This document shows positions 4,021 to 57,417 of a stretch of DNA of 64,000 nt, in pieces. This DNA comes from Podarcis cretensis. Taxonomy: Eukaryota. The stretch spans positions 97,898,001-97,962,000 of the forward strand of contig OX638149.1 of NCBI GenBank assembly GCA_951804945.1. The letters run 5' to 3'. The notes below the pieces were generated by a model. The model saw only the letters and a program-made list of their open reading frames with translations, was not told where the DNA came from and did not search any database. Each line of letters begins with the position of its first letter. Position 1 is the stretch's first letter. Position numbers and translations under genes: made by a program.

Positions 4021-5353
4021 ATGTACCACCCATTTTATGCTTTAGCCTCAGCCACTTTTACTGCCTAGAGGGCTGCCCATGGGTCAATGCAGTCCTTGGA
4101 CCAAATGAAAGGTTAGCCAAACCTGCTGCACACAGTAAGCGCTTGCCCTCTTCCCTTCCCTTCCTCAAACACAACCAACTGTAGGGATGGCCTTGTACAG
4201 AAGCTTCCACCAGAGGTCCTGAGAACTAGAAGCACTGGGAAGCACTGGGAATGCAATATAAGGCAACACCAGTGTCCCTAGAAGAAATGAAACACAAATC
4301 CAAAGCAGCACTATTTGTGCTCACAGCATTGCTCCTTGCAGAAAAGCAAGATGTGGGCTGGACTTCAGATTGTATCCACAGCTCCATGAGGATGGCTAGT
4401 ATTGCATGTTTATAGACGGGATTCTCCAGCCACTGCACACAATGAGAGATTCTCACTTTTTGCAAGAAGGAACATGGTTGGCTCTGTTTTGCTAATATGT
4501 ATTTGTGAATACAGTTAGTTAATTATGCACATCGTTCTACTAAAGCCTGCACAATTATTCATTTTGATCGGGAGGCAAGCTCATCTACCCACAAATGTAC
4601 TAAGATCTTGACAAGTCTGTATTCTAAATTCTAACCTTGTCTCTAACCTTGCTATAAAATCTATTTTTAAAAGTATACGGTTCTCATTTTCCTTTGATAT
4701 CGGCATTTCATTGCATTCCTACTTATTGCTGCCTTTTCTTTTTCTTCTTTTGCCAAATAAGGATTCAGTCTGCTTTTATCTAAATTAGGTTTTAGAGCAA
4801 AGCATTATATGGAAATATCAGAGCCTTTGGTCTTTTTACAAACCTAGTTAGGATTCTCTTGCTACAGTTTTATTTCTCATAATACACTCTGAAACTAAAT
4901 CACCACCTGAAATAATAAAAAGCAGCTTTAAAAAGGGGATTAAGCAACCACCCTGGCATCTAAGGGTATGTATTTTTCAGTTTTGTTCTAATGAAGTCCT
5001 ACACATGGCTTATGCCTTCTTTGTCTGTTTCACAAGCTTATAAAGCTGAAATAATAGTTAATATGAGGAACAAGTCTGAAATTTTCTATTAAAATCCTGT
5101 GTAAGGCTTCCTTTAGATTGTTTAAATTAGCATAAAGCAGACACCAAATAGAGAGGAGAGGAATATGTAAGGATGGTTTTTATTGGACAGAACTTTCACA
5201 TTTACCTTCAACTCATTTAGCTTCAAATGCTTTAATGAATGGAAGTAAGATTATACCACCATACCAATGGCTTTACCACAACTGAGCAATGCTGAGCATG
5301 TTTTTTACAAGTTTGGCTGGCAACAAAATGTTGCATCATAGAGGACTCCTGTC

Positions 5354-5679
5354 TGTTGGTTTCTGCTCTCTTCACTGTGCAGCGAAAGGCTTGTCACAAG
5401 ACAATGTTTACATTCCACAGACAGCATTGCTGTTATGTTTCCCACGGGAAAGGGGAGGCTGGATGTGACGTACACTGGTTTCCTGTTTTTCACTGTTCTT
5501 TGCAGTTCAGTGTGATTCTCTCTGTGCTTCAGAGGAGAGAGGATGCCTTTTTCTGCTTCGGCAGAGGAAAGATGCATTTCTGTAATCTACCAGCTTTGAA
5601 ATGTAAATAAAGCAATATAGAGCATGTTGGCACGTATTCCTCATCATTCCGCTGTGCACTTGGATGCTACAAATCAACA
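5354..5679 (+). repeat. 5' LTR of Copia element
   Basis: Starts TGTTGG and ends TCAACA. Direct repeat of 10144-10469 (offset 4790). AATAAA at 5606-5611. Confidence 0.97.
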
Positions 5680-5683
5680 TTAT

Positions 5684-5697
5684 GGTTATGGGCCCAG
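5684..5697 (+). promoter_or_regulatory. Primer-binding site complementary to the anticodon stem-loop of initiator tRNA-Met (half-tRNA priming)
   Basis: GGTTATGGGCCCAG is the reverse complement of CTGGGCCCATAACC in tRNAiMet. This is the PBS type of Drosophila copia and yeast Ty5. Confidence 0.93.
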
Positions 5698-6067
5698 AAG
5701 ACGCAGTCATTGGAATTCCGGAAAAAGGATCGGAATGCAGAGGGACGGATCGGACGGTATCTGCGCGTCAAGATGATTGATGAGGTATGTGCTACTGCTC
5801 CGGGCAGCCTGCCAGCTTCTATTTAATGGCTTTATGGCTGGACTTTGAACTTTTATGTCCGTTTGCCGGCTACAGGCAGCGGCTATGCCTATGCTGGGGA
5901 AATCGAAAGTAACTTTTAAAAGTGCTTTTGGGCTGAAGCAGCTGCTGATAACAGTGACGCAGCATGATTTAGGGCAGAGAGAAAGCTGTTTTGAACTTGC
6001 CTTTGGAATGAGGCTTGAAGCAGCAGAGAAGCAGCTTGTATAAAGCAGCTTGTTTAAAGCAGCAGAT

Positions 6068-9000
6068 ATGATGCAGAAGGCTAATGCCAGAGACATGATG
6101 GCCCTTCAGGATGCTTGTGGGATTCCCAAGCTCAATAAGAAAAATTATACGGACTGGGTTATCTATGCAGAGGCTATTCTGCGGAAAGAGGGTCTGTTTG
6201 AAGTTATTACAGACACCCCCCCAGCTCCAGTTACAGATGCATGGAAAGCTAAAGATTCCAAAGCAAGGGGGACTCTTACATTGATAGTATCCCCAGAAGA
6301 GCTCTGTCTATTGCGTGATAAGACCTCAGCCAGAGAAATTTGGGACGCTTTGAGGGAGGCACACTTGAGGACAGAAGCTGGGTCTACTATGTTTTATTTT
6401 AACAAGCTGCATAATATGGCTCTTGCTGAAGGTGGAGATGTGCGTACACATCTGATGGAGATGCAGAATCTGAGACATGAGCTGCAACAGAGAGGACTCA
6501 ACTTTCCAGAGGCTGTGTATTCCTTCATGATACTACAATCTTTGGGTTCAGGTTGGGAGTCTGTTGCGACTCAGATTGCTGTACAGCCTACCGCTCAGCT
6601 GACAGTGGATTATGTTACTGCCGTGATTCAAAATGAAGCAGATCGCCGGGGTGCTGGCTGCATGGGAAAGGGGGAGACTTCACAGACGTCATCCCAGAGT
6701 GCAGTGGAACCACCAGATGGCGCCAAAGCTTTGAAGGCAGTGAAATGCTACTCGTGTGGACGTCTAGGCCATATGAAGAGGGAATGCAGATATCCCAGGG
6801 CCAAGACAGAGCAGCGCAGCGAAAGCTCATCGCGTGGAAAAGGCCAAAGCAGAGGCAAAGGTCCGGTGTCCAGGACAACGCAGCCCAAAGCAATGGTCTC
6901 ACGCTTCACTCCAAAAGTTGCAGAGGTCCAGAAGACGTCTAGATCTTTCTTCGTTGTTGATTCAGCGGCAACGCACCACATGTGCAACGATAAGCGACTG
7001 TTCGTGTCTTTTACACCGCAGGAAGGTGCGATTCACCAGGCGGATGACCACACAATTCCCAGTAAAGGCTACGGAACTGTTGTTCTTCACAGTTTGGACT
7101 TATCGATACAGAATGTACTTTATGTTCCAGATGCCAAACATAATTTGCTCAGCGTTGGACAGCTGAATGAGCGGAACATTGACGTTTCCTTTAAGAACAA
7201 AAGGTGCATCATCACAAAGAAAAATGATTATGTATTGTATGCTGAATATGTTGATCGTTTGTATGTTTTGTATTATGATGATGTTGTGCAGGATGACACT
7301 TGTTGCATTGCAGGTTCTAACAAATGTTTGCATGCAGAATGTATTCATGATTTTCATCGAAAATTTGGTCATTTGGGTTTTGAGGCAGTATCTAAAATGC
7401 CTGCCTTGGTTGAAGGTATGACTATTAAACCCTGCAGGTACCACATGAAGTGCAAGGCATGCGCAGCAAACAAGGTGAAAATGGCTGCGAAAGGTAAGGT
7501 GTCTAGTAGGCAAGCTACAGAACCATACCAAATTGTTCATGCTGATTTGGTTGGACCACTAGCGCCCTCTTTGGGTGGTAATAGGTACTTCATGGTTCTC
7601 ATTGATGCATTTTCCAGATATATTTATGTGTACAATCTCAAGCAGAAATCAGAGGCTTTTCCTAGGTTCAAGGAATTCTGTGCTTGGTTGGAAAATGTGC
7701 ATGGTAAGAAGGTAAAAACTCTTTTCAGTGATCGCGGAGGGGAATTCACTTCTCAGCAGTTTGAAGCTTTTCTGTCTGAGAAAGGAATTCAACACGATTT
7801 GTCTAGTCCTCGCTCGCCATGGCAGAATGGACTTGCAGAACGAGCAAATCAGACATTGCTTCAAGGGTTAAAAACCTTGCTGCATGATGCAAATCTTCCA
7901 GAGAGTTATTGGGCCGAAGCTCTCTCATGTTTCACTTACAGTTATAATCGCAGGTTATCTTCAGCGATTGGTTGTACCCCCTATGAGAAGATGTTTGGCA
8001 AGAAGCCATACATCAAACACATGAAAATTTTTGGTTCTGACATGTGGGTTCACTCACCACAAAACTCCAAGTTAGACAAGCGTGGTTTGCATGGTATCTT
8101 TCTAGGTTATGAGAAAGGTTCTTACAGAATAAGGATGACTGACTCTAAGACCATTAAGCTCACAAGAAGTGTTGAGTACAATGCCAAGTGGGGGGAGAAT
8201 GTGGGAATTTTCCAATGTTATCCTGATGACAGTGATGAGACTGAGGATAGTCAAAAGCAACCACAGCAACCCACACCCACTGATGAAAGTTCTGATTCTG
8301 AGTCTGAAACTGAATCAGGTGATTCAGAGGATTTCAAGAGTGCAAAAGCCTCTATGCGACCCTCTGAAAGCTCTGATCAAGAATTGGAGGAACCATTGTT
8401 CACAATAGGTCGTTTTTCTCCTAAGAAGGAAGAGGAGAGTGTTGAAGACCTAAGGCTAATTCGCAGGTCACAAAGAGCCACAAAAGGTAGACCTCCAAAG
8501 AGATTTGCTGATGAGTTTGCTAAGATAGCAGTAACAGCTGTTAAAAGCTCCAAGAAGGTATTTGAACCTTCAAGTTTCCAAGAAATCCAGGATTTGGATT
8601 CAAAGGAAGCTGAGCCATGGTTAAATGCCATGAAGGCTGAGCTTGATTCCTTGGAAAGGAACAAAACATGGGAACTTGTTCCAGTAGTTCCAGGAATGAA
8701 ACTGCTTGGAAGCAAATGGGTCTTCAAAGCGAAGACTGATCAAAATGGCAAGATAGTCAGACACAAAGCCAGATTGGTAGCCAGAGGTTTTGCACAGGTA
8801 CCAGGTGAAGACTATCACGAGACCTACTCACCCACAGTGAGGTATGAGAGCATTAGGCTTATGCTCAAGCTAGCTGCAGAGGAGAATTTACACATTAGTC
8901 ACCATGATGTGAATACAGCTTTTCTGTACGGATCTCTAAATGAATCACTTTATATGCTTCCACCTGATGGCGTACAGGTAAAACAGGGATTTGTTTGTGC

Positions 9001-10096
9001 TCTGAAAAAGTCCCTTTATGGTCTCAAACAAAGTGCACGGTGTTGGCACACAAAACTCACTGAAGTATTGTTTTCTCTAGGTTTTAAGCAAGGGAAAGCT
9101 GATCCATGTGTATTTGTCAAAGAGGAGGGGCAAAAGAAACTGTATTGCTTGTTTTATGTTGATGATTTATTATTCTTTTGGGATGATGTCACAATGTACA
9201 ATAACGCCCTAGCTCAACTGAAAGAGCACTTTGACATGAAAGACCTTGGTGAGGTAAACAACTACCTATCTCTGGAAATAGAGAGAGATCAAGATGGTAA
9301 CATTCTAGTACACCAGTCATGGAAAATTGCTGATGTGTTAGGCAAACTAAACCTGATGGATGCTAACCCTGTAGACACACCGATGATAACAGGTTATCAG
9401 GTAGATGACACTGAAGAAGCATTTTCTGACACTACACTGTACAGAAGTGTGCTAGGCAAGCTAAACTTCATTGCCAGATGTTCAAGACCAGACATTGCTG
9501 TTAGCTGTAATTTGCTAAGCAGACAAGTCAACAATCCTACTGTTAAGGATTGGAAAGCTCTGAAACGCATAGCGCGGTATTTGAAAGGCACTATGCATTA
9601 CAGACTGAGATTTAACAATCAGAAGTCTGGTGGTCTTGAGATATTTGCAGATGCAAGTTTTGGAGGTGACACAACAGACAGGAAAAGCACGTCTGGAGTT
9701 TGCTATATGTACAATCAGGGTCTATTTGATTGGTCATGCAAGAAGCAAACAACAGTTAGCTTAAGTACTTGTGAAGCTGAACTGAATGCACTGTCTTATT
9801 CACTCAAAGATTGTGAATGGTTGTTACAATTGTGCAAAGACATGAAAATTCCTGTCAAATGTCCAATCCAGGTTTACCAGGACAACAAAGCATGTTTGGC
9901 TTTGCTGAATTCTGAAGGTTGTAAGCAAAGCACGAAGCACTTGCAATTGAAGTTGCAACATGCTAGGGAACGTATTCAGAAGGGACTCGTAACGGTGTCC
10001 TATATGCCAGGTAATGAAATTCCTGCTGATGTATTGTCCAAGATTGTATCAAGGGATCAACACTGTACCTATGTGCAGAAGTTGGGTTTGTACTGA
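6068..10096 (+). CDS. Copia Gag-Pol polyprotein, 1342 aa from the first ATG (the ORF track starts at TTG 6050)
   Basis: Gag start IPKLNKKNYTDW; zinc knuckle CYSCGRLGHMKREC; protease VVDSAATHHM; integrase HHCC (HRKFGH...CKAC) and DDE (HADLVGP, SDRGGEF, NGLAERAN); RT (KWVFKAK, KARLVARGF, DVNTAFL, SLYGLKQS, YVDDLL); RNase H (ADASF, DRKSTSG, STCEAE, DNKA, ADVLSK). No stops or frameshifts. Confidence 0.97.
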   Translation: MMQKANARDMMALQDACGIPKLNKKNYTDWVIYAEAILRKEGLFEVITDTPPAPVTDAWKAKDSKARGTLTLIVSPEELCLLRDKTSAREIWDALREAHLRTEAGSTMFYFNKLHNMALAEGGDVRTHLMEMQNLRHELQQRGLNFPEAVYSFMILQSLGSGWESVATQIAVQPTAQLTVDYVTAVIQNEADRRGAGCMGKGETSQTSSQSAVEPPDGAKALKAVKCYSCGRLGHMKRECRYPRAKTEQRSESSSRGKGQSRGKGPVSRTTQPKAMVSRFTPKVAEVQKTSRSFFVVDSAATHHMCNDKRLFVSFTPQEGAIHQADDHTIPSKGYGTVVLHSLDLSIQNVLYVPDAKHNLLSVGQLNERNIDVSFKNKRCIITKKNDYVLYAEYVDRLYVLYYDDVVQDDTCCIAGSNKCLHAECIHDFHRKFGHLGFEAVSKMPALVEGMTIKPCRYHMKCKACAANKVKMAAKGKVSSRQATEPYQIVHADLVGPLAPSLGGNRYFMVLIDAFSRYIYVYNLKQKSEAFPRFKEFCAWLENVHGKKVKTLFSDRGGEFTSQQFEAFLSEKGIQHDLSSPRSPWQNGLAERANQTLLQGLKTLLHDANLPESYWAEALSCFTYSYNRRLSSAIGCTPYEKMFGKKPYIKHMKIFGSDMWVHSPQNSKLDKRGLHGIFLGYEKGSYRIRMTDSKTIKLTRSVEYNAKWGENVGIFQCYPDDSDETEDSQKQPQQPTPTDESSDSESETESGDSEDFKSAKASMRPSESSDQELEEPLFTIGRFSPKKEEESVEDLRLIRRSQRATKGRPPKRFADEFAKIAVTAVKSSKKVFEPSSFQEIQDLDSKEAEPWLNAMKAELDSLERNKTWELVPVVPGMKLLGSKWVFKAKTDQNGKIVRHKARLVARGFAQVPGEDYHETYSPTVRYESIRLMLKLAAEENLHISHHDVNTAFLYGSLNESLYMLPPDGVQVKQGFVCALKKSLYGLKQSARCWHTKLTEVLFSLGFKQGKADPCVFVKEEGQKKLYCLFYVDDLLFFWDDVTMYNNALAQLKEHFDMKDLGEVNNYLSLEIERDQDGNILVHQSWKIADVLGKLNLMDANPVDTPMITGYQVDDTEEAFSDTTLYRSVLGKLNFIARCSRPDIAVSCNLLSRQVNNPTVKDWKALKRIARYLKGTMHYRLRFNNQKSGGLEIFADASFGGDTTDRKSTSGVCYMYNQGLFDWSCKKQTTVSLSTCEAELNALSYSLKDCEWLLQLCKDMKIPVKCPIQVYQDNKACLALLNSEGCKQSTKHLQLKLQHARERIQKGLVTVSYMPGNEIPADVLSKIVSRDQHCTYVQKLGLY

Positions 10097-10129
10097 TATT
10101 GTACGAACACGCTGCCCAGTGGTGTTCAC

Positions 10130-10143
10130 AGAAAGGGGGAGGA
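10130..10143 (+). promoter_or_regulatory. Polypurine tract (plus-strand primer)
   Basis: AGAAAGGGGGAGGA directly abuts the 3' LTR. Confidence 0.9.
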
Positions 10144-10469
10144 TGTTGGTTTCTGCTCTCTTCACTGTGCAGCGAAAGGCTTGTCACAAGACAATGTTTA
10201 CATTCCACAGACAGCATTGCTGTTATGTTTCCCACGGGAAAGGGGAGGCTGGATGTGACGTACACTGGTTTCCTGTTTTTCACTGTTCTTTGCAGTTCAG
10301 TGTGATTCTCTCTGTGCTTCAGAGGAGAGAGGATGCCTTTTTCTGCTTCGGCAGAGGAAAGATGCATTTCTGTAATCTACCAGCTTTGAAATGTAAATAA
10401 AGCAATATAGAGCATGTTGGCACGTATTCCTCATCATTCCGCTGTGCACTTGGATGCTACAAATCAACA
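10144..10469 (+). repeat. 3' LTR of Copia element
   Basis: Identical to 5354-5679 and followed by the TSD CTGTC. Confidence 0.97.
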
Positions 10470-11803
10470 CTGTCCACTGCTCAAGCCAGCCAGCCATGGG
10501 GACCTCCTGCATCAAAGTCCATTCTGTTACTCATTTTTCGTTTCCTCTCCAATAGTTACTGAGCATCCTCTGTCCACTGAACAGACTGAGGCCACGTTCA
10601 CACCATACATTTAAAGTACTTATCACACCCCTTTATTCAGCCATGCCTTCCTCTCAAGATTATAGGAGCTGTAGTTAAGGGAACTGAGCATTGTTCGGAG
10701 ACCCTCTAGTCCCCTCTCAAAGTTACAATTCCCAGAGTGGTTTAACAATCAAGGATTTGTATAATGGAAGAAAGGACACTCACAAACACTTCACAGCCAA
10801 CTCTAAAATAAAGTAAATGCATAAAAAGAAAGTCTGCACCCACCCATGATAATTTCATTCCCTTCTCTTGTTTTACTCCTGGTCACTCTTTGGCTATCGA
10901 AGTCTCATGGCGAGGGGGTTTTGGTGCACTCTTCACCAAGAAGCAAGACATTGAAATGTGTGAGGGACCAGTTCTATTTCTGAAGCATGACAAAACTTTC
11001 CAGAACAGTGGGCAATATTTGAGGGGAGAAATTAGCCTAGAGTAATAAAGCCTGTGTGCTTACTACCAGAAAGTCCCACATTTCTTCCAGAAAAGAAAAT
11101 GAGAAGAGTCAAAACAGAAGCTGCCAAAACATGGAGGGGTTGTTTTTATTTTTATGCAACTAATTGGAAAAGCAACCTATGTTTTGAAGATAAGCAGATC
11201 TGTGGGTTACCTAAAATATTAAAATGTCTAGGCTGGACACATTAGTGCAATGCTTTTGAGAATATATGGCAACTGCTGACTGTAAGAAATACCTAAGTCA
11301 CTTTTAGCTGATGTGAATATCTTCCTTTGATCATATTGATGTCAGAATATGAGGAGGCTTTTGGTACTATGAATATTATTATCTCTCCAGTAAGAAAGTC
11401 AGTATTACCGGTGACAGCATCTTGTCTGATGAGCTAGCTGTGTAGACATTAAAAGTGCAACATCAGCCACCACCATCCGCCATGATTGGCAGGCAGTATG
11501 AAGCCTCTGAAAAGGCCTGAAAGTTATCAGAAACCCACAATCTGCCTGCTGCACTTCAGATGCCAGCTCAAATCTTCACACTGCTTGCAGCTCCTGCAGT
11601 TTTCCTCAAGAGCCATGAACCAGGTCTGGATATGAATAGAGTCACCCATGACCCTAGCCAGGTTCCAGTGAACACTCTTTGAAGGACATAGCAACTCCAT
11701 GCTAAGGGACGGTAACAAAAGCTAGTTACAGAACTCAATGGCATTAACATGAAATAAAGGGATAAGGTATAAACCCTTACTGGACTTATTTTCAAAAGGT
11801 CTT

Positions 11804-12845: not shown

Positions 12846-12926
12846 AAAGGTAAAGGTAAAGGGACTCCTGACAGTTAAGTCCAGTCGCGAACGACTCTGG
12901 GGTTGCAGCACTCATTTCGCTTTACC
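12846..12926 (-). mobile_element. Sauria SINE 3' fragment (different subfamily from the two long copies)
   Basis: aaaggtaaaggtaaaggg is the (ACCTTT)n tail, followed by the agtc...gactctggggttg stem-loop region. Confidence 0.8.
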
Positions 12927-45124: not shown

Positions 45125-48100
45125 TGTTGTTGTTGTTTAGTCGTTTAGTCGTGTCCGACTCTTCGTGACCCCATGGACCAGAGAACACCAGGCACTCCTG
45201 TCCTCCACTGCCCCCCGCAGCTTGGTCAGACTCATGCTGGTAACCTCGAAAACACTATCCAACCATCTCGTCCTCTGTCGCCCCCTTCTCCTTGTGCCCT
45301 CCATCTTCCCAACATCAGGGTCTTCTCCAGGGAGTCTTCTCTTCTCATGAGGTGGCCAAAGTACTGGAGCCTCAGCTTCACAATCTGTCCTTCCAGTGAG
45401 CACTCAGGGCTGATTTCCTTCAGAATGGAGAGGTTTGATCTTCTTGCAGTCCATGGGACTCTCAAGAGTCTCCTCCAGCACCATAATTCAAAAGCATCAA
45501 TTCTTCGGCGATCAGCCTTCTTTATGGTCCAGCTCTCACTTCCATGCATCACTACTGGGAAAACCGTAGCTTTAACTATACGGACCTTTGTTGGCAAGGT
45601 GATGTCTCTACTTCTCAAGATGCTGTCTAGGCCTGTCATTGCCCTTCTCCCAAGAAGCAGGCGTCTTTTAATTTCGTGGCTGCTGTCACCATCTGCAGTG
45701 ATCATGGAGCCCAAGAAAGTAAAATCTCTCACTGCCTCCATTTCTTCCCCTTCTATTTGCCAGGAGGTGATGGGACCAGTAGCCATGATCTTCGTTTTTT
45801 TGATGTTGAGCTTCAGACCATATTTTGCACTCTCCTCTTTCACCCTCAATAAAAGGTTCTTTAATTCCTCCTCACTTTCTGCCATCAAGGTTGTGTCATC
45901 TGCATATCTGAGGTTGTTGATATTTCTTCCGGCAATCTTAATTCCGGCTAAGGATTCATCCAGCCCAGCCTTTCGCATGATGAATTCTGCATATAAGTTA
46001 AATAAGCAGGGAGACAAAATGCAGCCTTGTCGTACTCCTTTCCCAATTTTGAACCAGTCAGTTGTTCCATATCCAGTTCTAACTGTAGCTTCTTGTCCCA
46101 CATAGAGATTTCTCAGGAGATAGATGAGGTGATCAGGCACTCCCATTTCTTTAAGAACTTGCCATAGTTTGCCATGGTCGACACAGTCAAAGGCTTTTGC
46201 ATAGTCAATGAAGCAGAAGTAAATGTCTTTCTGGAACTCTCTAGCTTTCTCCATAATCCAGCGCATGTTTGCAATTTGGTCTCTGGTTCCTCTGCCTCTT
46301 CTAAATCCAGCTTGCACTTCTGGGAGTTCTCGGTCCACATACTGCTTGAGCCTTCCTTGTAGAATTTTAAGCATAACCTTGCTAGCGTGAGAAATTAGTG
46401 CAATTGTGCGATAGTTGGAGCATTCTTTGGCACTGCCCTTCTTTGGGATTGGGATGTAGACTGATCTTCTCCAATCTTCTGGCCACTGCTGAGTTTTCCA
46501 AACTTGCTGGCATATTGAGTGTAGCACCTTAACAGCATCATCTTTTAAAATTTTAAATAGTTCAGCTGGAATACCATCACTTCCACTGGCCTTGTTATTT
46601 GCAGTGCTTTCTAAGGCCCATTTGACTTCACTCTCCAGGATGTCTGGCTCAAGGTCAGCAACCACACTACCTGGGGTATATGAGACATCCGTTTCTTTCT
46701 GGTATAATTCCTCTGTGTATTCTTGCCACCTCTTCTTGATGTCTTCTGCTTCTGTTAGGTCCTTTCCACTTTTGTCCTTTATTATGGAAATCTTTGTACG
46801 AAATGTTCCTTTCATATCTCCAATTTTCTTGAACAGATCTCTGGTTCTTCCCATTCTATTGCTTTCCTCTATTTCTTTGCATTGCTTGTTTAAGAAGGTC
46901 TTCTTGTCTCTCCTTGCTATTCTTTGGAAATCTGCATTCAATTTCCTGTATGTTTCACAATCTCCCTTGCATTTTGCTTGCCTTCTCTCCCCCGCTATTT
47001 GTAAGGCCTCATTGGACAGCCACTTTGCTTTCTTGCATTTCCTTTTCATTGGGATGGTTTTCGTTGCTGCCTCCTGTATAATGTTACGAGCCTCCATCCA
47101 TAGTTCTTCAGGCACTCTGTCCACCAAATCTAAATCCTTAAACCTGTTCCTCACTTCCACTGTGTATTCATAAGGGATTTGACTTAGATTGTATCTTACC
47201 GGCCCAGTGGTTTTTCCTACTTTCTTCAGTTTAAGCTTGAATTTTGCTATAAGAAGCTGATGATCTGAGCCACAGTCAGCTCCAGGTCTTGTTTTTGCTG
47301 ACTGTATAGAGCTTCTCCATCTTTGGCTGCAGAGAATATAATCAATCTGATTTCGATGCTGCCCATCTGGTGATGTCCATGTGTAGAGTCGTCTCTTGTG
47401 TTGTTGGAAAAGCGTGTTTGTGATGACCAGCTTGTTCTCTTGACAGAACTCTATTAGCCTTTGCCCTGCTTCGTTTTGATCTCCAAGGCCAAACTTGCCA
47501 GTTGTTCCTTTTATCTCTTGACTCCCTACTTTAGCATTCCAATCCCCTATAATGAGAAGAACATCCTTCTTTGGTGTCACTTCTATAAGGTGTTGTAAGT
47601 CTTCATAGAATTGGTCAATTTCAGTTTCTTCAGCACCAGTAGTTGGTGCATAAACTTGGATTACTGTGATGTTAAAAGGTCTGCCTTGGATTCGTATCGA
47701 GATCATTCTATCATTTTTGAGATTGCATCCCAGTACAGCTTTTGCCACTCTTTTGTTGACTATGAGGGCCACTCCATTTCTTTTACGGGTTTCTTGCCCA
47801 CAGTAGTAGATATGATGGTCAACCGAATTGAATTCACCCATTCCCGTCCATTTTAGTTCACTGATGCCCAGGATGTCAATATTTATTCTTGCCATCTCAT
47901 TTTTGACCACCTCCAACTTACCCATGTTCATGGTTCTTACATTCCAGGTTCCTATGCAATATTTTTCTTTACAGCATTGGACTTTCCTTTCGCTCCAGGC
48001 ATATCCGCAACTGAGCGTCCTTTCGGCTTTGGCCCAGCCGCTTCATCAGCTCTGGATCTACTTGTACTTGCCCTCCGCTCTTCCCCAGTAGCATGTTGGA

Positions 48101-49642: not shown

Positions 49643-50005
49643 GGGACGCAGGTGGCGCTGTGGGTTAAAGCCTCAGCGCCTAGGACTTGCCGATCGAAAG
49701 GTCGGCGGTTCGAATCCCTGCGGCGGGGTGCGCTCCCGCTGCTCGGTCCCAGCGCCTGCCAACCTAGCAGTTCGAAAGCACCTCCGGGTGCAAGTAGATA
49801 AATAGGGACCGCTTACCAGCGGGAAGGTAAACGGCATTTCCGTGTGCGGCTCTGGCTCGCCAGAGCAGCGATGTCACGCTGGCCACGTGACCCGGAAGTG
49901 TCTCAGGACAGCGCTGGCCCCTGGCCTCTTAAGTGAGATGGGCGCACAACCCCAGAGTCTGTCAAGACTGGCCCGTACGGGCAGGGGTACCTTTACCTTT
50001 ACCTT
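49643..50005 (+). mobile_element. Full-length young Sauria (Squam1) SINE
   Basis: GGGACGC start, A box (ggtggcgctgtggg), B box (ggttcgaatccc), (ACCTTT)n tail, TSD TACCTCTCAATTA (49630-42 and 50006-18), CpGs retained. Confidence 0.95.
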
Positions 50006-54560: not shown

Positions 54561-57067
54561 TGCAATCATAAAAGGGTGGTGGCACTGACTGAAAAGTGAC
54601 AATAAATGTGGCAGCCTTCTTCTGTGCGAGCAGTCCCTCCTTTCAGCAACAGCACACTATCCAAAAGAAGAATGCAATAAAATGAACTCCTTCCATTTCT
54701 GGTGCTTACTAGCAAGGGCTCACTGCAAGAGAAGTTTCATCTATCGATTAAAAAGTAGAATGGAATCTTCAAATACTGTGTGAACTAGTGCAGAACAAAT
54801 AGTAGAACCATAGTGTCATTGTACAGTATAGCCAGCCAATTTATTTGTTTCATGTCCTAAATGCAAAACAAAGTCTACATTCACATAGCTATTATCCGTT
54901 ATTTATTAATTATGCATCACACCTTCAATACATTTCAACAATTACTCCAGCTTTAAAAGATGATGCTATCTATATTTGATAAGAGTGGGACCAAAGCTTA
55001 CATTAATCGTATTTGTATCATTCTTCTAATTCCTTCAGCGTTAAAAACACCCTCAAGGATGTTATTAGTCAAATCTATTATTGTCAAATCTAAGAACACA
55101 AAGATCTGACAGAGTTATTGTTTCACTAGCTTGCCTTTGATACCATCTACCCCCCTGAAGAAATGAATTTAGAACAAAGGATTTATAATTTAGCAGTATT
55201 CATAACTTCAAAAGAGTTCTTTTTTAATGACAGTCTAAGAACTGCATGGGCCAAGGTGACTGATAATCCATGCAGTCAACAGGGACCTGATATTTAGTGG
55301 AGTGGAGAAAAATTCACTTTTGGGGTGGGGTGGGGACTTCATTGCCCAGGTTCCAGTCTGTTGGAGAAACAACACATTTACCAGCTTCCCGCAAGACCAC
55401 GTCTGTTACATGTCATGAACAGTTTGTTTGTGGTTTAATTGTCTATTGCCTTGAACAGTTTGTTGCAAAGGGGACACAGAAGCTTTATGAACAAACAGAT
55501 TATCATATTTATACCAACCTAAAACCATGCAGTTTCAAAAGAAACACAGCGCCAAGTGCATCAGCACAATAGCCCACATCGGAACTGGGTAAATAGGTTT
55601 TGTCTAGCTTTGGATGGTGCACTAGTTGTGCCTATTTCAGGTACAACTGGGCTTGGCCAAGTTGCATCTTTGACTACTGGGGCACCATTTATGTGGGCTG
55701 CCATTGAAAACCACTCATAAACTTCAGCTGGTGTTAATGCCACTACTAAAATTATGAGTAGGGCATATAAAATAATTCCATTAGATGCCTTATTTTTCTC
55801 TTTACTCCTTCTTATTTTGTTTTTCACTCAAGACCAAAGAGTACTGCAAATTATCCAGATCATCTGCACATATTTTTGCACCAGTTGTATTTTTACACAC
55901 AAGAACTAACTCTTGCCCTCAAAACTGATAATGATAAGCTAACATTTTAGACATGTGAAAAAAGCTTTGGTGATAAATATTGCCACTGTCATTTTTCTTT
56001 GGCAATGCTAAATGTCAGTATCAGATTAAAAAATATTGTGGCAGGGGAGGGGAGAGTGTGAGTCATACAGGGAAGTATAATGTGAAACAATTTGTTTGCT
56101 ACGCAACATGCCATTACTGATCTGCAACATTTTGCATTGGCTCAGATTTGGAATAAGGCATGATGTGACCTGAGTTATGAAGGCACTTCCAATTTCTGTC
56201 ACACCATGGCTTAAATTAGGGTATCTGCAAAAATGTCCCACATGGCTCAAAGTGTACTATAATAAAGACTTTTAAGCCTAAAGTGCTATCCCCATCACCC
56301 CATGGCTATTTTCATTCACAGAATCACCTGCTGGTGGAATTTGCTTAGTGGCTCAGTGCTCTCTGTGTTATCATTCTCTGACAAACCCACAAGAAAACCC
56401 ACATGGGAAATTAAAGCTAAACGCAGCTCATGCGTTTCCATTCCACTCTGCCAAATGACCTCCACTGTGAAGGGAGTAGGCAGCATGCACGAGTGGGAGA
56501 GATATTGACAGACAGGGCTACGCAAGGAACACATGGGCCTAGGGGTCACTTGCATGGTGCCACAGCACCAGAAGAATGTGTGGGCTATAAGCCTCTAGAG
56601 AGGGAAGCTCTAGAGTTCCTCCACAGAGAGCTGACCACAAGTTTGGCAATATTATTTTTACTGGAGGCAAACTTTCAGTTTTGAAAGCACTTGCCTTTCG
56701 CAAAGAAACAGAGGCCAATGCATTCAACCCCAACTGAACAAAGGGTGCATTAAACAATCAAGCATTTCTGAACCTCTCCTGTTTCCATGCACATATAAAA
56801 TCATATGCCTCACTAAAAGGTGTATTATTCATTCACCCTGGAGGAGTTTCCAGCTCTATGGGAAATGCATCTTTCCCACTCTCCGGCTTCATGTTGTAGA
56901 TGAGGTGCTGCTACCTCCCTGAATGAATGAATGAATGAATGAATGTACAATGGGAACTAGCACAAAGCTGCTCCTGAGAAAATCAGAGAAATGAGTCAAG
57001 CTAAGCTTATCCATCACTAAGTATTGGGGTTTAAAAGTTTCGTAGCAGTTATAAATGTTAGCATATT

Positions 57068-57417
57068 AAAGGTAAAGGTACCCCTGCCCGTACGGGCCAG
57101 TCTTGACAGACTCTGGGGTTGTGCGCCCATCTCACTTAAGAGGCCAGGGGCCAGCGCTGTCCGGAGACACTTCCGGGTCACGTGGCCAGCGTGACATCGC
57201 TGCTCTGGCGAGCCAGAGCCGCACACGGAAACGCCGTTTACCTTCCCGCTGGTAAGCGGTCCCTATTTATCTACTTGCACCTGGAGGTGCTTTCGAACTG
57301 CTAGGTTGGCAGGCGCTGGGACCGAGCAGCGGGAGCGTACCCCGCCGCAGGGATTCGAACCGCCGACCTTTCGATCGGCAAGTCCTAGGCACTGAGGCTT
57401 TAACCCACAGCGCCACC
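57068..57417 (-). mobile_element. Young Sauria (Squam1) SINE missing ~9 nt at the 5' end
   Basis: Reverse complement of 49652-50000 with about 5 substitutions. aaaggtaaaggt tail. Confidence 0.95.

Follow-up and report, generated by a model that had tools for sequence, protein, structure and literature searches.

A young lizard copia retrotransposon with a primer-binding site complementary to the anticodon arm of initiator tRNA, four bases away from its LTR

In copia-like retrotransposons of the Hemivirus type, cDNA starts at the 3'-OH of nucleotide 40 of a tRNA. Such half-tRNA priming has been reported for copia, 1731, Ty5 and Osser, and the Hemivirus group is stated to be non-monophyletic (PMC1181622; this and the following papers are cited from their available portions). 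In plants, it is described for Osser, Bryco, part of Gymco-II and Bianca (PMC6317226), and in rust fungi for Copia and Helenus elements, with a statement that it is not known how copia elements come to change their type of primer (PMC10886601). Among vertebrates, copia elements are common in squamates, where all are assigned to Mtanga (over 100 clusters, 90% of them squamate), the only copia clade reported in Lepidosauria (PMC11889832), abundant in tuatara (PMC7116210) and present in frogs (PMC4131045). For the copia element in corn-snake OCA2, the junctions read by eye in the available supplement are CA-AAT-TGG at its primer-binding site (PBS) and G-run-ATT-TG at its polypurine tract (PPT), and these 3-nt spacers at the two ends form a perfect inverted repeat (PMC4657000).

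No account of the type of primer used by vertebrate Mtanga-like or squamate copia elements was found in the searchable literature, a scope outside which most subscription journals, Repbase Reports and GyDB fall, and the available parts of PMC3212995, PMC3587641, PMC7773854 and PMC9751208 contain nothing on the primer type of vertebrate copia. A literature search with a 12-nt string of the PBS described below gave no retrotransposon paper by title among the matches listed, and the available supplementary files on metazoan copia elements, tuatara and frogs contained no PBS string. Curated consensus libraries probably show the PBS.

Anatomy of the element and its primer-binding site

The window analysed here, a 64-kb stretch of Podarcis cretensis DNA, carries an element at positions 5354-10469 with a 5-bp target-site duplication (TSD) (Table 1). 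Direct TG...CA LTRs, the short TSD and the order Gag-PR-IN-RT-RH are those of the Ty1/copia superfamily (Pseudoviridae). The single ORF follows the copia arrangement from Gag and a zinc knuckle through protease and integrase to RT and RNase H, with Pfam matches to Retrotran_gag_2, zf-CCHC, Pol_BBD, rve, SH3_retrovirus and RVT_2. In the numbering of a 1350-aa frame, rve (492-592) precedes RVT_2 (873-1115, E 2e-69), and the RT is of the copia type. Catalytic motifs were found in an alignment against 27 relatives, and the PDB matches comprised the Ty1 integrase-like chain 7z0h_W and the Copia VLP protein. The protease motif reads DSAA (ORF residues 298-301), as in at least two of the 27 relatives, while the first RNase H motif, DASF (residues 1195-1198), is common to the element and its relative P0001.

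Table 1. Features of the lizard copia element (positions in the window)
Feature	Positions	Strand	Basis or remark
Left TSD, CTGTC	5349..5353	+	same five bases 3' of 3' LTR
5' LTR, 326 bp, TG...CA	5354..5679	+	326/326 identity with 3' LTR
Spacer TTAT, LTR to PBS	5680..5683	+	not present 3' of 3' LTR
PBS, 14 nt, GGTTATGGGCCCAG	5684..5697	+	pairs with nucleotides 27-40 of tRNAiMet, in its anticodon arm
Single gag-pol ORF, 1342 aa	6068..10096	+	Pfam domains, catalytic motifs, PDB matches
PPT, AGAAAGGGGGAGGA, adjoins 3' LTR	10130..10143	+	sequence
3' LTR, ends at CA, 0 spacer bases	10144..10469	+	paired with 5' LTR
Right TSD, CTGTC	10470..10474	+	same as left copy

If 1e-9 to 5e-9 substitutions per site and year are assumed, the lack of any difference between the LTRs gives an upper age limit of 4.6 to 0.9 million years. 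Judged by its sequence, this is apparently a competent, very young, recently inserted and autonomous Ty1/copia retrotransposon; no further copies or solo LTRs were found within the 64-kb window. Regarding the leader, the spacer supplies an additional ATG (5682) in the same frame as the one inside the PBS (5688), and opens a 32-codon upstream ORF (5682-5780, plus strand) that could affect gag translation. Further downstream, in the region 5849-6063 (plus strand), an open stretch of 64 codons in the gag frame is closed by a stop (6041-6043) that falls within 2.5 tandem copies of a 14-bp repeat (6029-6063), directly 5' of the gag ATG. Elsewhere in the window, a LINE on the minus strand (45232-48042), which we take to be of the BovB/RTE type, contains a 936-aa open frame with endonuclease and RT. 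Its ORF at 45235-47964 shares 95% identity with proteins of Podarcis muralis, 92% with those of Zootoca vivipara, 72-78% with Varanus and 70% with Anolis, which marks the host as a vertebrate and a lacertid lizard; identity of the LINE to bovid sequences is 76-80%. A further repeat has two 351-nt copies that face opposite ways and match at 99% (49651-50001 and 57067-57417), as well as an older partial copy at 12846-12905; these are presumably young squamate SINEs.

The end of the 5' LTR is fixed at 5679 (CAACA), as the second LTR diverges directly after CAACA. The offset of TTAT from the LTR that the first-pass annotation had described is thus confirmed, as is its reading of 5683-5697 as TGGTTATGGGCCCAG, i.e., T5683 followed by the PBS. 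That annotation had also paired the PBS with the anticodon arm of tRNAiMet and not with its 3' CCA end, and our analysis revealed an exact complement of nucleotides 27-40 (bases 26-39 of the human tRNA, counted by eye on a published primer). An antisense primer to human tRNAiMet contains all 14 PBS bases (PMC1797187) and a zebrafish anti-iMet probe 13 of the 14 (10.1101/2024.01.30.575011). Pairing stops on both sides, since the tRNA would want G at 5683, where T is present, and C at 5698, where A is present. The PBS occurs once at zero mismatches in the window; the chance of an exact 14-mer at most six positions from the LTR end is 8e-9, or 2e-5 when any of an assumed 3000 tRNA 14-mers counts. 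The site therefore has the Hemivirus-type composition, in that it complements the anticodon stem-loop of tRNAiMet and stops at nucleotide 40. It lacks the Pseudovirus-type complement of CCA, acceptor stem and T stem, as it departs from the tRNAiMet 3'-end PBS (PMC1797187) after TGGT and has no T-arm signature. Given the identity of the PBS with the Drosophila copia site, half-tRNA priming by a 5' fragment of tRNAiMet is highly probable. The tRNAiMet 5' half proposed in the first-pass annotation is likewise judged a likely primer, on account of the shared 14-mer and of pairing that ends at nucleotide 40, and the likely form of that primer is a fragment ending at this nucleotide.

The LTR-PBS junction among other copia elements

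For comparison, copia contigs contaminating prokaryotic assemblies were collected (165 confirmed stretches, from which 79 loci were kept). A half-tRNA PBS, called at no more than one mismatch in 12 bases, was present in 22 of the 79 loci, and neither PBS type in 51, many of which are short. The 3'-end PBS motif occurred at 10 places, and the six with an LTR-like CA upstream were retained, all having a spacer of 1-3 nt; a spacer is thus ordinary for copia elements primed by a tRNA 3' end. The 14-mer of the lizard element was identical in seven of the 79 loci, Drosophila copia (L017) among them. This locus (NZ_POYJ01000027.1) is a near-whole Drosophila copia inside an Aquimarina assembly, recognized as such by its match to the Copia VLP protein 8vvw_A (521.8 bits over 241 residues). 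Another contig of the set, CBDBCZ010000018.1 (2.77 Mb), is labelled Nitrospirales and harbors two full copia elements (L001 and L056); it is probably eukaryotic. A plasmid search with the copia polyprotein returned, besides IS481 matches, three copia-like records filed as plasmids (NZ_CP115302.1, NZ_CP115454.1 and NC_015657.1; 4.6-5.4 kb), which match over 53-74% of the polyprotein length and are probably contaminant retrotransposon circles. No tRNA genes were found within the 64-kb window or in the 11 of the 79 copia loci that were scanned.

The two bases before the half-type PBS were CA in 19 of the 22 loci, TA in two and AA in one, and wherever two LTRs were available (4/4) the shared LTR sequence stopped exactly at the PBS, with no spacer. 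Neither a T before the PBS nor a 4-nt gap was seen in any of the 22. The first-pass annotation was thus right to call the TTAT offset odd, and also in stating that the PBS of Drosophila copia abuts the LTR, as CAACA is flush with the site in L017. Fungal Helenus consensus sequences also start with the PBS, except for one with an odd boundary (7 of about 50 occurrences, in the available part of the PMC10886601 supplement). A flush PBS is typical of Hemivirus members, without being a formal criterion, and the spacer of the lizard element is a real departure from this layout, known from one copy. It has no firm parallel among the comparison loci, which are distant from the element (36-43% identity in the RT core). 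Spacers of 3 nt before the same half-tRNA PBS occur in curated insect copia families, which would make the offset layout less novel. At L003:4484-4507, where one LTR copy is available, CAACAATA stands before a half-type PBS and allows two readings, CAATA flush with the site or CAACA followed by a spacer of 3 nt.

Concerning the opposite end, the PPT junction of the lizard element, GGGGGAG-GA-TG, has two bases beyond GGGGGAG that most half-type relatives are without. GAG was flush with TG in 11 of 15 candidate PPT junctions of half-type loci, which were picked by eye from several regex candidates per locus and are ambiguous in register. Behind the PBS, short stretches of the lizard element are, by eye, candidates for pairing with the tRNA D arm. 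In the 80 nt behind the PBS of 21 half-type loci, the top 5-mer was shared by five loci and equalled in 182 of 200 shuffles, and there is no sign of conserved secondary tRNA contacts in these loci. An RNA structure at 5620-5800 (fold z -2.8) was also considered and rejected, since six other boundaries gave +0.6 to -1.4 and 5 of 42 windows along the element were equally low.

Closer relatives of the element were P0001, with 56% identity over the whole protein, and P0121, with 80% over 285 aa. In an RT tree of 58 rows, from which two proteins were excluded as too short, the element paired with P0001 (SH-aLRT 100) within a 17-row clade (SH-aLRT 96) that also holds elements of Lasius, Trichuris, Trichinella and Cordylochernes (ant, nematode and pseudoscorpion). 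None of the 28 PBS-typed loci fell inside this clade, the nearest being three flush half-type loci (support 81), and Drosophila copia did not group with the element. Given that the Hemivirus group is non-monophyletic, the element may be said to work like a Hemivirus without any claim of clade membership.

Priming, end trimming and the origin of the spacer

Under the standard scheme of LTR replication, the right end of the cDNA takes up all bases lying between the primer terminus and the LTR. If TTAT was in the parent RNA, the 3' LTR flush at CA means that four terminal bases (or three, had the primer been A-extended) were removed, and 3' processing by integrase would be the simplest way. Starting from the anatomy, the complementarity, the identity with the copia PBS and the flush 3' end that we observed, we infer the primer, its length, the trimming and the inheritance of the spacer as follows. 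The 5' part of initiator tRNA, as a fragment reaching to nucleotide 40, would anneal to 5684-5697, and reverse transcriptase would extend its 3'-OH through the four spacer bases and then into the LTR. The linear cDNA would bear four extra bases past the terminal CA, which integrase would remove before joining, leaving a flush CA and the 5-bp TSD. The spacer would be an inherited feature of the family, with no pairing role for the primer. Taken as a whole, this account of a half-tRNA-primed lacertid copia, in which TTAT is inherited, copied into cDNA and cut off by integrase, is the one we favor by a modest degree.

The offset layout suggests end trimming and not repair of a tRNA tail. Against this, retroviral integrases usually trim two bases, and a trim of four is longer. 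In the corn-snake copia, the 3-nt spacers at both PBS and PPT imply end trimming in a squamate copia element, and the PPT side of the lizard element also looks extended, with GA before TG. The two ends need not match, as locus L032 has a 3-nt PBS spacer yet a flush PPT. In Ty1, the PBS is stated to be inherited from the RNA and not from the primer (available text of PMC7472051), and with inheritance of this kind the spacer would stay stable.

As far as the origin of the spacer is concerned, TTAT and the next two bases match PBS bases 3-8, which makes a perfect tandem, TTATGG-TTATGG (5680-5691). The spacer itself duplicates PBS bases 3-6 and looks like a replication scar; a perfect tandem, with a period of 4-8, would arise from only 2 of 256 possible spacers. 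This speaks for a rival view, according to which the spacer is a lesion of this copy, caused by mis-annealing at the second strand transfer with the outer end untouched, or an assembly error. The family would then be flush and the element an ordinary Hemivirus-type copia with no unusual trimming. The flush junctions of the four two-LTR loci, of the 19 CA-preceded half-type loci and, in the available supplement, of the Helenus consensus sequences (PMC10886601) point the same way. However, with one slip onto the second GG the junction would grow by six bases and four are observed, so that the duplication needs two steps. Moreover, no other lesion appears in the 652 LTR bases or the ORF, and the PPT side is likewise two bases longer than in most relatives. 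A change after insertion is itself unlikely, given LTRs identical at 326 of 326 positions and an unbroken 4-kb ORF. We thus regard a copy-specific spacer as unlikely, although it is the strongest competitor of the inherited, trimmed spacer.

Besides the TTATGG duplication, a second origin fits without CCA addition, namely a relic of a CA-NNN-TGG layout after a primer switch. The junction can be read as CA-TTA-TGGT, the corn-snake layout, and could remain from a change in which end of one and the same tRNA was used; the 3'-end and anticodon-arm sites of tRNAiMet overlap in GGT. The weak sister group of flush half-type loci (support 81) speaks mildly against a 3'-end-primed ancestor. In its fullest version, this idea envisages a copia family of lizards with both half-tRNAiMet priming and the trimming of three or four end bases, in which CA-TTA-TGG is the scar of a switch between 3' end and anticodon arm and an A-extended half possibly serves as primer. 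We offer it as a speculation with a small, though real, chance of being true.

The A-extended half was put forward in the first-pass annotation as a CCA-like extension. A fragment ending in ...AACC would receive an A from the CCA-adding enzyme or a terminal adenylyltransferase and pair with T5683, and TTA would be trimmed. The added A would indeed pair with T5683, and the spacer would shrink to 3 nt with a CA-NNN-TGG junction as in the corn-snake copia. Nevertheless, the proposal hinges on one base, expected in one of three cases among non-G bases, and leaves TTA unexplained. The CCA enzyme fixes the acceptor stem (available text of PMC10275265), which a 5' half on its own does not possess. 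At 5682, an A tail of greater length would meet a mismatch, a T before the PBS was seen in none of the 22 half-type loci, and T5683 has other explanations, either from a relic or from the tandem. We thus consider the extension improbable and do not retain that claim. Even less credible is another primer altogether, that is, the 3' end of a mature tRNA or tRNA-like RNA pairing from T5683, or self-priming by the 5' end of the element. Read from T5683, the site does open with TGG, like 3'-end PBSs. C61 of the tRNA T stem is conserved, so that a 3'-end PBS would carry G there and then a T-loop complement; position 16 (5698) is A instead, and no T-loop complement follows. Rfam yielded no match at the gathering threshold and nine below it (E 2-9), none of them a tRNA, and the 14-nt identity with the copia PBS would have to be a coincidence. 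Self-priming was rejected, because within the LTR no complement of 5676-5705 exceeds 6 nt, and the one of that length sits at the end of the LTR itself and not at the PBS.

Relation to known systems

The first-pass annotation saw here a link between tRNA fragments and retrotransposition in a vertebrate. This claim was overstated, as copia elements are abundant in squamates (available text of PMC11889832 and PMC7116210) and half-tRNA priming is widespread in the superfamily; the lizard case thus extends a known mechanism. If the layout holds across copies, lizards would supply a tRNAiMet fragment with a 3'-OH, cut in the anticodon stem, unlike the loop-cut stress halves, and a copia integrase would trim more bases than half-tRNA-primed relatives need. 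If, on the other hand, the spacer is specific to this copy, the element is an ordinary young copia. Should the junction be the scar of a primer switch, it would offer an active vertebrate system for studying the nuclease acting at nucleotide 40 and the change of primer. Silencing by 3'-tRFs has been described for mammalian elements (available text of PMC7472051), and a half-tRNA PBS would presumably escape it. Such a site is also overlooked by annotation limited to tRNA 3' ends.

Among the systems described, Drosophila melanogaster copia, the type of Hemivirus priming, shares with the lizard element the 14-nt PBS, TG...CA LTRs, a single ORF with integrase before RT and a G-rich PPT. It differs in that its PBS is flush after CAACA, four bases closer than in the lizard, and the two belong to separate clades with 38% identity in the RT core. 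Yeast Ty5, 1731, Osser, plant Bryco and Gymco-II and the rust-fungus elements likewise combine an anticodon-arm PBS for tRNAiMet with a 5-bp TSD. Unlike the lizard element, these other half-tRNAiMet copia elements have non-vertebrate hosts and a layout that is flush, or nearly always so in the 22 loci. The Mtanga clade has squamate hosts and is a terrestrial clade including insects and nematodes, which is in line with the neighbors of the element in our RT tree (SH-aLRT 96), a tree without a Mtanga reference. Finally, the corn-snake OCA2 (amel) copia is, according to the available parts of PMC4657000, also a recent squamate insertion with a 5-bp TSD, an LTR-PBS spacer and a CA-NNN-TGGT junction. 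Its PBS corresponds to the 3' end of tRNAiMet with one extra base, its spacer is 3 nt and its length 5832 bp, whereas the lizard element uses the anticodon arm, has a 4-nt spacer and is shorter. It seems from these two sequences that squamate copia elements may use both ends of tRNAiMet, with similar junctions.
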